The translations under genes were made by a program, and so were the position numbers. Shown piece by piece: positions 4,050 to 33,904 of a DNA stretch of 64,000 bases. The stretch spans positions 4,257-68,256 of the forward strand of contig JBBTQX010000008.1 of NCBI GenBank assembly GCA_038065455.1. The letters run 5' to 3'. Origin of the DNA: Patescibacteria group bacterium. GTDB lineage: Bacteria > Patescibacteriota > Minisyncoccia > UBA6257 > GWB1-50-10. The stretch's first letter is position 1. Each line of letters starts with the position of its first letter. The notes below the pieces were generated by a model. It saw only the letters and a program-made list of their open reading frames with translations. It was not told the DNA's origin and made no database searches.

Positions 4050-4358
4050 ATGGGTATAGAACAAATTTCATCAGATCAGGAGAAAAAAGCCATGTTTAAT
4101 GTAGGCGAAGGTGTAATGCCAAGGTGGTCAACTGACGAGAACCGTGAAGAAATGATGCCCGCCATGAAACTGGACAAAAATTATTATGTTGTCGATCAGG
4201 TTGATGAAAGTGCTGGTAGTATCCATCTTAAAGGAACGTCATTGGATGACTGGTATGAAGCCAAATTTTTTGTCAAAGCTTTAGATCCGAAATTCAGACA
4301 ACCTAGCGAGAGAGAAAAACGAGCAAGTCCTGAGGGTTATGATACTCTAGCTCCTTAA
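4050..4358 (+). CDS. hypothetical protein
   Basis: 102-aa ORF with no recognisable motif. Confidence 0.35.
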   Translation: MGIEQISSDQEKKAMFNVGEGVMPRWSTDENREEMMPAMKLDKNYYVVDQVDESAGSIHLKGTSLDDWYEAKFFVKALDPKFRQPSEREKRASPEGYDTLAP

Positions 4359-29536: not shown

Positions 29537-31663
29537 ATGTTAGACTTTCACACGCCTCTCGCCGAAGTGAACGGCATCGGCCAGAATTTCATCGCGAAAC
29601 TGAAGAGGATGGGCATTTCGACGGCGGGCGAACTTCTATCCCATTTTCCCGCTCGCTACGAAGATTTTTCGCAAATCTACAATATCGCCGATTTAATCCC
29701 CAATCAGGAAGCGACCATCCGGGGGCAAGTGGAAGAAATCGAGGGTCGCCGCGCCTGGCATCGCCGGAATCTCCACATCACCGAATGCCTTATTACCGAC
29801 GATACCGGTTCCATTAAAGCCGTCTGGTTCAATCAACCCTATATCAAAAATACTCTTCAGCCGGGGCGTCTGGCGAATTTCTCGGGCAAAGTGTCGAAAA
29901 GCAAGGACGGAGATATCCATCTTTCAAGCCCCACTTACGAAGTGATAACCAATGACCGAATGGACACAAAGCACACGGCGAGGATTGTCGGCATTTATCC
30001 CGAAACCCGCGGCCTCACTTCCAAAGGCATCCGTTATCTCATAAAACCCCTACTGGAAAACCTGGAAGAAATTCCCGACCCCTTGCCGAAAGATATTTTA
30101 AAAAAATGGGATTTAATCGGAATAAACCGCGCCTTCAGCCAAATCCATTTTCCCGAAAAATTGGAAGACGCGTTTGAGGCGAAAAAACGCTTTGCTTTCG
30201 AGGACTTATTCCTACTCCAGATTTACAACCTGAAACAGAAGAGTGCGCTTGCTCGGAAAAAAGCGCCCAGCGTGGCGACTGATATTCTTTTTATCAAAGA
30301 TATCCTGAATCATCTTCCTTTTACCCTAACCCTTTCGCAGAAAAAATCTCTTTGGGAAATCGTTCAAGATACGGCGAAAGGCCAACCGATGAACCGCTTG
30401 CTTCAAGGAGACGTCGGCTCGGGAAAGACGGTGATAGCCGCGATTGCCGCTCTGAATGCCGCTCATCAAAACTATCAAACGGCACTTATGGCGCCCACCG
30501 AAATACTCGCCCGCCAGCATTTCAATACCTTCATCAGATTTTTTCCGGAATTCGACGGCGGCGTGGCGCTCATAACCGCAAGCAAACGGGAAGTCTTTTA
30601 CGGCCACGGCCTCGCGGCCGAGCTCAAGAAAAAACAGGCCGAGGAAGAAGTTCGAAGCGGGAAAATAAAAATAATCGTCGGGACGCACGCGCTTATCCAA
30701 AAGGGGCTGGATTTCAAATCGCTGGCACTCGTTATCGTGGACGAACAGCACCGTTTCGGCGTAAACCAAAGAGCGGAGCTCCTGAATAGGAATGGGGCGT
30801 TAACACCCCATTTTCTCTCAATGTCCGCCACCCCCATTCCCCGCACTCTTTCCTTGACCATCTTCGGCGACCTTGATCTCTCCATAATCACCGAGATGCC
30901 GAAAGATCGGAAGCCCATCGTCACCAAATCGGTTGATCCAAAAGAAAGAACGGCGACCTACCAATTTATTCGCGGGGAGATCAAAAAAGGACGACAGGTT
31001 TTCGTTGTTTGCCCGCGCATCGAGCCGAACGAAAAGATTGAAGCTCCGATCACGAGATTGGAGTGGCAAAAACTAGAGTTGAAATCCGTAAAAGAGGAGT
31101 ACGAAAAATTATCGAAGAAGGTTTTCCCTGATCTCAAGATCCTCATGCTCCACGGCAAGATGAAGGCGACGGAGAAAGAAAAAGTGATGCGCGATTTTTT
31201 AGAAAAACGCGGCGATATTTTGGTAACGACATCCGTCGTCGAGGTCGGCGTGGATGTGCCGAACGCGACCGTCATGATGATTGAGGGCGCCGACCGTTTC
31301 GGCCTGGCCCAGCTTTACCAGTTCCGCGGCCGGGTCGGCCGGAGCGAGCACCAATCCTACTGCTTTCTCTTCACCGATTCATCGTCCAGAACCACCAAAC
31401 AAAGAATGAAATCTATTGTTGAGGCTAAGAACGGCTTTGAATTGGCTGAAAAAGACCTAAAAACACGGGGCCCCGGCGAGTTCTTCGGTCAGACCCAATC
31501 CGGAATGCCGGATCTGGCGATGATTGCCATCCAAAATCCGGAGATGGTTAAGGAATCCCGGGAAGCGGCGGTTAGGATAATCAAAGCAGATCCGGCGCTA
31601 AAGAAAAATCCGGGGCTTGCCCGGAAGATGACTGAATTCCAAAAGCAAATTCACTGGGAGTAA
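29537..31663 (+). CDS. recG: ATP-dependent DNA helicase RecG
   Basis: Wedge domain plus SF2 helicase motifs GDVGSGKT, DEQHRFG. Confidence 0.92.
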   Translation: MLDFHTPLAEVNGIGQNFIAKLKRMGISTAGELLSHFPARYEDFSQIYNIADLIPNQEATIRGQVEEIEGRRAWHRRNLHITECLITDDTGSIKAVWFNQPYIKNTLQPGRLANFSGKVSKSKDGDIHLSSPTYEVITNDRMDTKHTARIVGIYPETRGLTSKGIRYLIKPLLENLEEIPDPLPKDILKKWDLIGINRAFSQIHFPEKLEDAFEAKKRFAFEDLFLLQIYNLKQKSALARKKAPSVATDILFIKDILNHLPFTLTLSQKKSLWEIVQDTAKGQPMNRLLQGDVGSGKTVIAAIAALNAAHQNYQTALMAPTEILARQHFNTFIRFFPEFDGGVALITASKREVFYGHGLAAELKKKQAEEEVRSGKIKIIVGTHALIQKGLDFKSLALVIVDEQHRFGVNQRAELLNRNGALTPHFLSMSATPIPRTLSLTIFGDLDLSIITEMPKDRKPIVTKSVDPKERTATYQFIRGEIKKGRQVFVVCPRIEPNEKIEAPITRLEWQKLELKSVKEEYEKLSKKVFPDLKILMLHGKMKATEKEKVMRDFLEKRGDILVTTSVVEVGVDVPNATVMMIEGADRFGLAQLYQFRGRVGRSEHQSYCFLFTDSSSRTTKQRMKSIVEAKNGFELAEKDLKTRGPGEFFGQTQSGMPDLAMIAIQNPEMVKESREAAVRIIKADPALKKNPGLARKMTEFQKQIHWE

Positions 31664-32889: not shown

Positions 32890-32978
32890 ATATCAAACAA
32901 CAAAAAATCTGCCGAAATGACAGACTTTTTGATTCTTGTTGCGGGGGCAGGATTTGAACCTGCAGCCTTCTGGTTATG

Positions 32979-33700
32979 CTTACCACTACAATTTTCATTG
33001 CTTCCATCCGTCAACTGACGAAGAATTTGTGGTCTGGACTATCCTTTGTTCCTAAAATAGGAACCCTACCCTCTAGTCTCTACACCTTCTCTAACACAAT
33101 GTCGGAGCTTGGCTCGGGATTGTCTGTCTCATTGCTGAGATTGGGATTTCCCCGAATTTGGCAGGTTATCTTTCCAACAATTACTCATCGGAACGCCCTA
33201 TGCATTTCATTTGAACACGAACTAATGGTATACTACCAGAAGATGCCTAAATCTCTCACACGAAGCGAAAGTGTTTATAAATTCCTTAATCCTAAAGGTG
33301 ATCCGTTTTCCTATAGTCCGAAAAGTAATAGATCTCTCGAAATCATCGGATTAATTCTTTGGATAACAGAAGGTGATAAAACCCAACTTTCTCTTTCTAA
33401 TGGTAATTTTTCGATTATCAAACAATACCTAACTTTTTTGAGAAAGGTATGCAAGTTAAAAGAAGAAAAAATCAAAGCTGTTATCCACTGTCATGATTCT
33501 TTATCTTACGAATCTTGTTTGTCTTATTGGTCAAAAATAACCAATATCCCAAAGAACCGTTTTACCAAGCCATATATCAAAAAGGATCACGGTGGAGCCA
33601 GAAAATACCCCTATGGAATAATCAGGATTGCAGCAACTAATATGAAATTAATTCGTATTTTTAATGAACGCTTGAAAGATTTCGGTCTTTCAAGAAGTTG
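32979..33700 (-). other. group I-like intron inserted after U33 of the tRNA(CAU)
   Basis: 5' exon ends in U, the intron ends in G (..GTAAG|CAT), and the position in the anticodon loop matches known bacterial tRNA group I introns. Intron core P1-P9 not verified. Confidence 0.5.
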
Positions 33701-33701
33701 A
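33225..33701 (+). CDS. putative LAGLIDADG-like homing endonuclease, encoded antisense to the tRNA intron (ORF open from 32976)
   Basis: The 241-codon ORF exactly spans the intron on the opposite strand. LEIIGLILWITEGDKTQLSLSNGNFSI resembles a single LAGLIDADG motif. The start codon is uncertain. Confidence 0.4.
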   Translation: MVYYQKMPKSLTRSESVYKFLNPKGDPFSYSPKSNRSLEIIGLILWITEGDKTQLSLSNGNFSIIKQYLTFLRKVCKLKEEKIKAVIHCHDSLSYESCLSYWSKITNIPKNRFTKPYIKKDHGGARKYPYGIIRIAATNMKLIRIFNERLKDFGLSRS

Positions 33702-33824
33702 GCCAGACGAGCGACCGGGTTGCTCCTCCCCGCAAATGCATATTATCAAGAAAAAACGGAAAATACAATTGTTTTAAAATCGTTGGCATTTATGGGATAC
33801 TGTTTTATAATCAGCATCAGAAAT

Positions 33825-33896
33825 GGCTGGGTAGCTCAGTGGTAGAGCAGACGTTTCATAAGCGTCGGGTCGTGAGTCCGATTCTCACCTCAGCCA
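33825..33896 (+). tRNA. tRNA-Met/Ile2 (CAT), elongator type
   Basis: Cloverleaf GGCTGGG../..CTCAGCC-A, anticodon loop UUCAUAA. T-loop UCCGAUU is unusual with C at position 55. No CCA encoded. Confidence 0.75.
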
Positions 33897-33904
33897 CAAA
33901 ATAA

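Follow-up and report, generated by a model that had tools for sequence, protein, structure and literature searches.

A probable IC3-like group I intron in an initiator-type tRNA gene of Patescibacteria, with an antisense gene for a putative LAGLIDADG-fold homing endonuclease

Introduction

What is the sequence that separates the two halves of a tRNA gene with the anticodon CAU in a Patescibacteria genome, and which tRNA does it interrupt? The question arises on contig JBBTQX010000008.1 (assembly GCA_038065455.1, Patescibacteria group bacterium), from which a stretch of 64,000 nucleotides (nt), positions 4,257 to 68,256 of the forward strand, was analyzed; this whole stretch is called the window here. 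A first-pass annotation, made from the letters of the window, had described a tRNA(CAU) gene on the minus strand with a group I-like intron in its anticodon loop. We consider it likely that the interrupting sequence is an IC3-lineage group I intron lying between U33 and C34 of an initiator tRNA (tRNA-fMet) gene, and that it carries on its opposite strand a gene for a single-domain putative homing endonuclease of the LAGLIDADG fold. The coordinates of the features are collected in Table 1.

Anatomy of the split tRNA gene

When the minus strand was read directly, the two exons were found to be spaced by exactly 722 nt. Two complementary tRNA halves at this distance had been reported in the first-pass annotation, and every coordinate given there proved right to the base. 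Once joined, the exons form a standard cloverleaf whose anticodon loop is CUCAUAA, as had been predicted for splicing after U33 and before C34, and ARAGORN calls the gene as tRNA(cat) i(35,722) once introns are allowed. ARAGORN with default settings and Rfam at gathering thresholds both missed the split gene; six ordinary tRNAs were reported in the window. The dinucleotide CA is present on both sides of the junction, and three placements of the intron would yield an identical product. The junction was set at U33|C34 because this is the sole placement with an exon-final U and an intron-final G, both of which had been noted before. The predicted exon join reads ...UCUGGCU|CAUAACCAGA..., and the intron-less site is GCTCGTCTGGCTCATAACCAGAAGGC.

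About 55 independent contigs contain this split gene with an identical junction, and the recurrence argues that the arrangement did not arise by chance. These loci were gathered from genomes and metagenomes by way of the open reading frame (ORF) that lies antisense to the intron, and their assignment to Patescibacteria follows the record titles. The labels "uncultured Gammaproteobacteria" and "Saccharibacteria" on several Third Party Annotation (TPA) records among L008-L021 look automatic and unreliable.

In the window (33735-33760, minus strand) and in the loci L012, L021, and L024, a -10-like hexamer (GATAAT, TATAAT, TATTAT or TAAAAT) lies with its end about 5-7 nt before tRNA nucleotide 1. 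With the hexamer this close, transcription may begin at the mature 5' end itself or beside it, leaving little or no leader for RNase P.

The group I ribozyme

A search with the Rfam models returned a match to Intron_gpI (RF00028) at 33213..33016 of the minus strand, with a score of 35.8 bits and an E-value of 2.7e-7 in a regional search or 1.8e-5 over the whole window. The gathering score of this model is 50 bits, and the match is visible only under an E-value threshold. The introns of six out of ten sampled relatives scored 54.7-76.9 bits, above the gathering score.

The decisive evidence for a group I ribozyme is the comparison across relatives. Thirty distinct sequences were aligned to a hand-written structure of 60 pairs, giving 1789 cells. 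Standard pairs fill 94.9% of these cells, compared with 31-44% after the 3' partners had been shifted by 1-3 columns. Compensatory changes on both sides occur at 31 of the 60 pairs, and the observed covariation score was reached by none of 500 shuffles. Strong covariation was detected in P2 (all 8 pairs), P3, P6a, P8, P9, P9a, and P9b. P7 is formed by GACUA/UAGUC and contains a single covarying pair, which is A-U in 20 of the sequences and G-C in the other 10; P4 is invariant. In the window copy, 56 of the 60 structural pairs and all invariant core positions are preserved, and all 30 aligned introns end with the terminal G. The detection of the core in Rfam and the covariation thus both support the group I intron that had been proposed for the anticodon loop of this tRNA(CAU) gene; the guide sequence for P1, the P7 helix, and the P3-P9 pairings that such an intron should contain were all located.

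The guide GGGC does not vary, and in all 37 sequences it is placed 41-42 nt upstream of P4. It forms the P1 pairs G-C, C-G, U.G, and C-G in 30 of 30, with U33 opposite the middle G of the guide. In 24 of the 30 sequences the guide reads UGGGC, and the extra U pairs with A+2. Another candidate for the guide, GUUGG (33178..33174), was discarded because it falls within P2 and has no counterpart in relatives. The P2 placement suggested by Rfam was also dropped, as that hairpin is a part of the P1-loop closure, and the P2 given in Table 1 was identified by comparison across relatives.

The P1 loop is about 480 nt long and its ends are complementary, intron nt ~30-55 facing the 20-40 nt just 5' of the guide. 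The former segment is at the same time the antisense of the codons for ...LIRIFNERL... in the ORF. Because the register of the closing helix shifts between sequences, closure was tested per sequence as well as in fixed columns. The duplex energies calculated per sequence have a median z of -3.2 relative to shuffles. In fixed columns 68.9% are paired, against 31-49% after sliding, and 22 compensatory cells were counted where 10.9 were expected. Compensating pairs are seen by lineage: ACGAAC/GUUCGU, GUGAAC/GUUCAC, CUGGA/UCCAG, CAUUGA/UCAAUG, and GUUGGAC/GUCCAAC. RNAalifold applied to the P1-loop ends found no consensus structure. The U.G pairs present in the window would be A.C mismatches on the other strand, which assigns the closing helix to the intron RNA. 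It is likely that this helix is real; its support is moderate, and it is less firmly established than the core.

A 9-bp hairpin (CUUGAAAGA/UCUUUCAAG; 33671-33694, minus strand) lies right after the 5' splice site, at intron nt 7-30, and corresponds to the last ORF codons on the other strand. Similar hairpins with a shifted register are present in many relatives.

Identity of the interrupted tRNA

The exons of the split gene combine the CAU anticodon with A11:U24 and with G2-C71/C3-G70. In relatives the exons read CGCGGGGUGGAGCAG...GCUCG.CUGGCUCAUAACCAG.AGGUCGCGGGUUCAAAUCCCGCCCCCGCAAC, and across the junction CGCGGGGUGGAGCAG..GGUAGCUCGCCUGGCU|CAUAACCAGGAGGUCGCGGGUUCAAAUCCCGCCCCCGCAAC. Position 1:72 is a C1xA72 mismatch in most relatives and A1xA72 in one; the window and a few others have U1-A72. 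Over 73 nt, the spliced window tRNA matches an E. coli tRNA-Met gene at 86.3% identity. E. coli genomes carry this gene at a median of four places, of which three lie in tandem. We take the tandem triplet to be the metZWV initiator cluster and the additional place to be metY. The intact CAU tRNAs that adjoin these loci are all of a different, elongator type, and no intron-less initiator gene was seen nearby in any of the ~55 loci searched. Judged from its exons, the interrupted gene is an initiator tRNA gene.

The first-pass annotation had tentatively assigned the two CAU genes of the window to tRNA-Ile2 and elongator tRNA-Met and had seen initiator features in neither. This does not hold for the split gene, whose exons are of the initiator type; its neighbor is of the elongator type, either Met or Ile2. 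That neighbor, the second intact CAU tRNA reported as divergent and 90 nt away, is present as described. It has the T-loop UCCGAUU, with C instead of U at position 55; UCCGA is also found in several relatives and in the interrupted tRNA of L006.

The antisense gene and its product

The first-pass annotation had overlooked a second gene in the intron. The 5' 460 nt of the intron, which make up the P1 loop, are the reverse complement of a conserved ORF of 152 amino acids (aa). The plus-strand frame is open over the whole intron (32976..33701), starting at an ATG complementary to the CAU anticodon. Since the frame remains open through the ribozyme core, gene callers give artefactual proteins of 221-261 aa, and such proteins are held in the databases (P0001, P0003, P0011). 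We found 108 homologs at 55-96% identity, nearly all of them 152-153 aa long and sharing the same start methionine, and 45 residues are invariant among 32 aligned members. The protein encoded at L023, which comes from Hainich groundwater, is 99% identical to that of the window. Every homolog examined at a full-length locus is situated at a tRNA-fMet intron. In all 36 distinct loci with an intron-resident ORF, the TGA stop codon lies across the 5' splice site.

The protein has no match in Pfam at E<=10, LAGLIDADG_1/2/3 and PF11645 included, no sequence match in PDB, and no Foldseek match. The AlphaFold2 model has a predicted local distance difference test (pLDDT) score of 87.5 and displays the alpha-beta-beta-alpha-beta-beta-alpha core of LAGLIDADG homing endonucleases; a restriction-enzyme-like fold was not found in it. 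The protein contains the motif LEIIGLxLWxTEGD, in which E43, G44, and D45 are invariant, and the helix formed by residues 30-43 ends at E43. According to this model the ORF product is a minimal single-domain protein of the LAGLIDADG fold, and it is most likely a homodimeric homing endonuclease. With only one domain, the enzyme would act on palindromic DNA as a homodimer, and the anticodon-stem DNA, TCTGG CTCATAA CCAGA, is a site of this kind. The ORF ends at the expected cut site, as it would if the endonuclease gene had once inserted where its own product cuts; this origin is speculation at present.

A palindrome, TGGTATA(A/C)TACCA, with an extended -10 element (TGnTATAAT) is located upstream of the ATG in nearly all loci, mostly by 4-9 nt. 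No Shine-Dalgarno sequence was seen upstream of the ORF start across the loci. The short distance between the -10 element and the ATG suggests an essentially leaderless mRNA, transcribed from the strand opposite the tRNA. The motif stays with the ORF when the ORF lies outside the intron and is therefore an ORF signal, not an element of the ribozyme.

We propose that P1 would be formed by the guide (A/U)GGGC and the segment G31-C32-U33|C+1, so that a U.G wobble falls at the 5' splice site. The compact P2-P9 core, with its GNRA L2 and GAAA L9b, would bind guanosine and perform the two transesterifications; the terminal G at 32979 would set the 3' splice site, and the product would be the mature initiator tRNA. 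The P1 loop, closed by the long-range helices, would double as the reverse complement of the 152-aa gene, which would be transcribed from its own extended -10 promoter into an essentially leaderless mRNA. The homodimer would then cut the palindromic anticodon-stem DNA of intron-less tRNA-fMet genes, and repair would copy the intron and the ORF in.

Table 1. Features of the split tRNA gene, the intron, and the antisense gene (positions in the window)
Feature	Position	Strand	Remarks
5' exon, initiator-type tRNA gene, tRNA-fMet(CAU)	33701..33734	-	34 nt; nucleotides 1-33, last base U33; TGCGGGGAGGAGCAACCCGGTCGCTCGTCTGGCT; U1, A8, A11
Probable group I intron, IC3-like	32979..33700	-	722 nt; starts with CA; terminal G (omega-G) at 32979
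3' exon, initiator-type tRNA gene	32939..32978	-	40 nt; C34 to discriminator A73; CATAACCAGAAGGCTGCAGGTTCAAATCCTGCCCCCGCAA; CCA not encoded
5' strands of the likely P1-loop-closing long-range helices	33647..33671	-	intron nt 30-38 and 43-54; also antisense of the ORF C-terminal codons
3' strands of the likely P1-loop-closing helices	33202..33226	-	AUUAGUUCGUGU and AAUGAAAUGC; between ORF promoter and guide sequence
Internal guide sequence, A-GGGC	33195..33199	-	pairs with G31 C32 U33 | C+1 to form P1; U.G wobble at splice site
P2 hairpin	33173..33192	-	8 bp; GNRA tetraloop GUAA; compensatory changes at all 8 pairs
Catalytic core	33036..33166	-	P3-P8; P3/P7 pseudoknot
P3	33166..33160 with 33070..33064	-	covaries
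P4/P5/P6	33156..33085	-	within core
P7	33080..33074 with 33041..33036	-	pseudoknot with P3
P8	33063..33049	-	covaries
P9 domain	32982..33033	-	outer helix ACCAC/GUGGU (33033..33029 with 32986..32982)
P9a	33025..33002	-	covaries
P9b	33001..32988	-	GAAA tetraloop; covaries
152-aa ORF, putative homing endonuclease	33243..33701	+	antisense to intron; divergent protein with predicted LAGLIDADG fold
TGA stop of ORF	33699..33701	+	complement of U33|C+1 A+2; spans 5' splice site
Palindrome with extended -10 element	33226..33238	+	TGGTATACTACCA; TG at 33226-7, TATACT at 33229..33234; 8 nt upstream of ATG
Intrinsic-terminator-like hairpin and T run	32901..32931	-	directly after the tRNA 3' end
Intact elongator-type tRNA(CAU)	33825..33897	+	neighbor, outside the element; divergent, 90 nt from split gene

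Variants of the element and the wider protein family

All full-length loci among those retrieved carry the element. In two lineages, represented by L021 and L053-55, the ORF is free-standing and lies divergently, about 95-120 nt upstream of the tRNA-fMet gene (L021:1102-1960, L053:632-1760). The introns at these loci have no ORF; they are 208 nt long in L021 and 474 nt long, with other loop content, in L053-55. The free-standing subtype of the protein (P0089, P0094, P0096) has N- and C-terminal extensions, and its stop codon is TAA or TAG. At L060 (1048-1602) the intron measures 481 nt and the ORF is cut to residues 64-152, the ribozyme being otherwise intact; from its sequence this ORF appears to be a decaying endonuclease gene. 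Taken with the ORF-less introns of Microgenomatia and Bacteroidota described below, the free-standing, resident, and decaying forms make up the series expected from a cycle of endonuclease invasion and decay.

A profile search of 1.84 billion representatives retrieved 1545 relatives of the ORF protein at E<=1e-3. Most of them are 200-280 aa long, with the ORF domain placed C-terminally after a helix-turn-helix (HTH) region. A distant relative, P0112, gave a faint match to LAGLIDADG_3 (E 0.0088), under the cutoff. One member of this family is a 295-aa protein of a high-GC genome (L066:812-1699), encoded between tRNA-Pro and a cluster of five tRNA genes; its N-terminal part is an HTH region, and its C-terminal domain shares about 30% identity with the ORF. 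No group I core was found near the distant ORF relatives of L065-67 (~30% identity).

Elsewhere in the window, Rfam gave a weak match to Ysr141 at 30344-30595 of the minus strand (35.7 bits vs a gathering score of 196; E 4.7e-6). It is antisense to a 708-aa ORF on the plus strand and is probably a coding-sequence artefact.

Alternative explanations

Several observations speak against a spliced initiator tRNA gene with a functional intron. The window intron scores under the Rfam gathering threshold (35.8 vs 50) and is unseen at default settings. The exon-side P1 pairs are invariant, so that no covariation is possible there; P1 in the window has just 4 bp, with A+2 facing A; and P10 is unsupported, as only 1-3 pairs are possible (one in the window) and the exon does not vary. 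In the tRNA, A8 replaces the near-universal U8, and nucleotide 1 is the U of a pairable, if weak, U1-A72. A dead tRNA pseudogene, consisting of a mobile ORF cassette in a decayed intron that no longer splices, would account for the low Rfam score, the weak P1 and P10, and the odd positions A8 and U1. We nevertheless give this explanation hardly any credence. The window intron has 56 of 60 pairs and every invariant core position intact. The variant with A8 and U1-A72 is common to the window and to L023 and L024, which differ elsewhere, and was therefore inherited and kept rather than introduced by a sequencing error. The gene has its own terminator-like hairpin, no other initiator gene was seen in the ~55 loci, and strong purifying and compensatory selection acts on the element throughout these loci.

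The pairable U1-A72 would also suit an interrupted elongator tRNA-Met or tRNA-Ile2 (lysidine), as would the anticodon stem, which has two consecutive G:C pairs where initiators usually have three. In a recent survey, two related Microgenomatia genes are labeled simply "Met (CAT) 33/34" (PMC13011429). In the window, as in most relatives, the stem is built of U29-A41, G30-C40, and G31-C39, and U29-A41 in place of the third G:C pair is a lineage-wide deviation. The C1xA72 mismatch and A11:U24 of the relatives, the best E. coli matches, which are to the tRNA with a median of four places per genome and a tandem triplet, and the clearly different, elongator type of every adjoining intact CAU tRNA all argue for the initiator. 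A homologous intron of Bacteroidota lies in a gene that the survey assigns to fMet (PMC13011429). An elongator or Ile2 identity is accordingly very improbable in our view.

The most likely function of the ORF, a homing endonuclease, has its own rival. The gene could be real and yet never have cut DNA, or have ceased to do so, its product being a maturase or a domesticated sequence-specific DNA- or RNA-binding protein. We regard this as unlikely. Distant lineages have 45 invariant residues in common, among them the acidic E43 at which the motif helix ends. The ribozyme is intact at L060, where the ORF is truncated, and at the loci with the ORF outside the intron, which argues that the RNA is not obviously dependent on the protein. 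Free-standing copies beside the target gene are, moreover, the behavior of mobile endonuclease genes. The preferred reading of the ORF therefore remains that of a putative homing endonuclease gene.

Novelty and significance

With respect to the literature searched, the new elements are the antisense endonuclease-like gene, with its predicted LAGLIDADG fold, its own promoter, and a stop codon over the splice site, as well as the breadth of the system across Parcubacteria-type Patescibacteria and its free-standing intermediates. As far as this literature goes, few other bacterial introns encode a gene on their antisense strand. A bolder interpretation is tentative, and we are inclined to doubt it as a whole: the ORF would represent an undescribed minimal (152-aa) family of LAGLIDADG-fold endonucleases, which has spread in antisense orientation in the initiator-tRNA IC3 intron across Patescibacteria and is expressed from an intron-internal promoter as a leaderless mRNA; the essential tRNA precursor and this mRNA, complementary over ~460 nt, would regulate each other by convergent transcription or double-stranded RNA; and L021 and L053-55 would be living intermediates of intron entry.

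The survey picture of Patescibacteria (PMC13011429) is extended by an IC3-like fMet intron with an endonuclease-like gene that is widespread in Parcubacteria-type lineages. As the gene is missed by default ARAGORN and Rfam searches, such genomes would seem to lack an initiator tRNA. If the split gene is the sole initiator tRNA gene of its genome, self-splicing would be essential for all translation initiation. The natural series of ORF-less introns, free-standing neighbors, ORFs in the P1 loop, and decaying ORFs can test the pathway to group I intron mobility. The element also offers a clue to the function of a large superfamily of unannotated proteins, which comprises at least 1545 representative clusters.

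Comparison with known systems

The position 33/34 in tRNA-fMet is a well-characterized bacterial insertion site according to a 2026 survey (PMC13011429), in agreement with the first-pass statement that known tRNA group I introns of bacteria use this site. In the same survey, none of the tRNA introns of Patescibacteria is assigned to subgroup IC, the endonuclease genes in them are HNH genes in tRNA-Asn only, and the ~720-nt intron form is absent from the data set of complete genomes (PMC13011429). The Patescibacteria introns labeled "Met (CAT) 33/34" in Microgenomatia (GCA_001029755.1, GCA_013426185.1; PMC13011429) resemble the element described here in the tRNA(CAU) gene, which begins TGCGGGG..., in the insertion site, and in a UGGGC guide; in contrast to the window intron they are 190-216 nt long and ORF-less, are 52-57% identical, and have no P9a. 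A tRNA-fMet 33/34 intron of Bacteroidota, labeled IC3 in the survey (GCA_951812585.1, Table S5, PMC13011429), resembles the window core at 62% identity, and 49 of the 60 pairs are formed in it. It has the guide GGGC, P2-P9, a GAAA L9b, the 3' end GUAGUGGU..G, and an enlarged P1 loop of ~100 nt, but it comes from another phylum, is 303 nt long, and has no ORF. By this degree of identity and pairing, the window intron belongs to the tRNA-fMet 33/34 lineage already on record. The split gene is a real finding; the intron, being of a known lineage at a known site, is not itself new; its IC3 label is by homology and is best worded as IC3-like.

The tRNA-Ile(CAU) intron of Azoarcus belongs to IC3 as well. 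It has a compact core of ~200 nt, a P1 with 3 exon base pairs, and the tetraloop contacts L2-P8 and L9-P5; its insertion site is 36/37, and it lacks an ORF. Its core strings are presumably near-identical to those found here (GUCAAAUUCGG.GAAACC, CCGAGCCAAGC, and GAAGGUGUAGAGACUAGA.GGCA).

In the tRNA-fMet intron of cyanobacteria the ORF is reportedly in sense orientation. That intron, which carries I-Ssp6803I in Synechocystis PCC 6803 and its relatives, is similar to the one described here in the initiator gene, the 33/34 site, and the presence of an endonuclease gene in a group I intron (PMC13011429). The target of I-Ssp6803I is a pseudo-palindromic 23-bp anticodon-stem DNA (PMC3384342). The enzyme differs in being a PD-(D/E)XK (PF11645) tetramer, whereas the ORF product described here has no PF11645 match and a predicted LAGLIDADG fold, and its gene lies on the opposite strand with its own promoter.

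Antisense endonuclease genes have been described in group I introns of nuclear ribosomal DNA (rDNA), such as L2066, where the gene likewise lies on the strand opposite the ribozyme (PMC9548176). The L2066 case is eukaryotic and nuclear, with a His-Cys box protein and spliceosomal introns; the present one is found in a bacterial tRNA gene, with a predicted LAGLIDADG fold and a sigma-70-type extended -10 element.

At L021 and L053-55 the ORF stands free beside a target gene protected by an ORF-less intron, an arrangement that resembles collaborative homing. Collaborative homing, in which a free-standing endonuclease is paired with an ORF-less intron, reportedly occurs in cyanophage psbA and in genes of T-even phages. 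It has been proposed as an intermediate on the way to a mobile intron.

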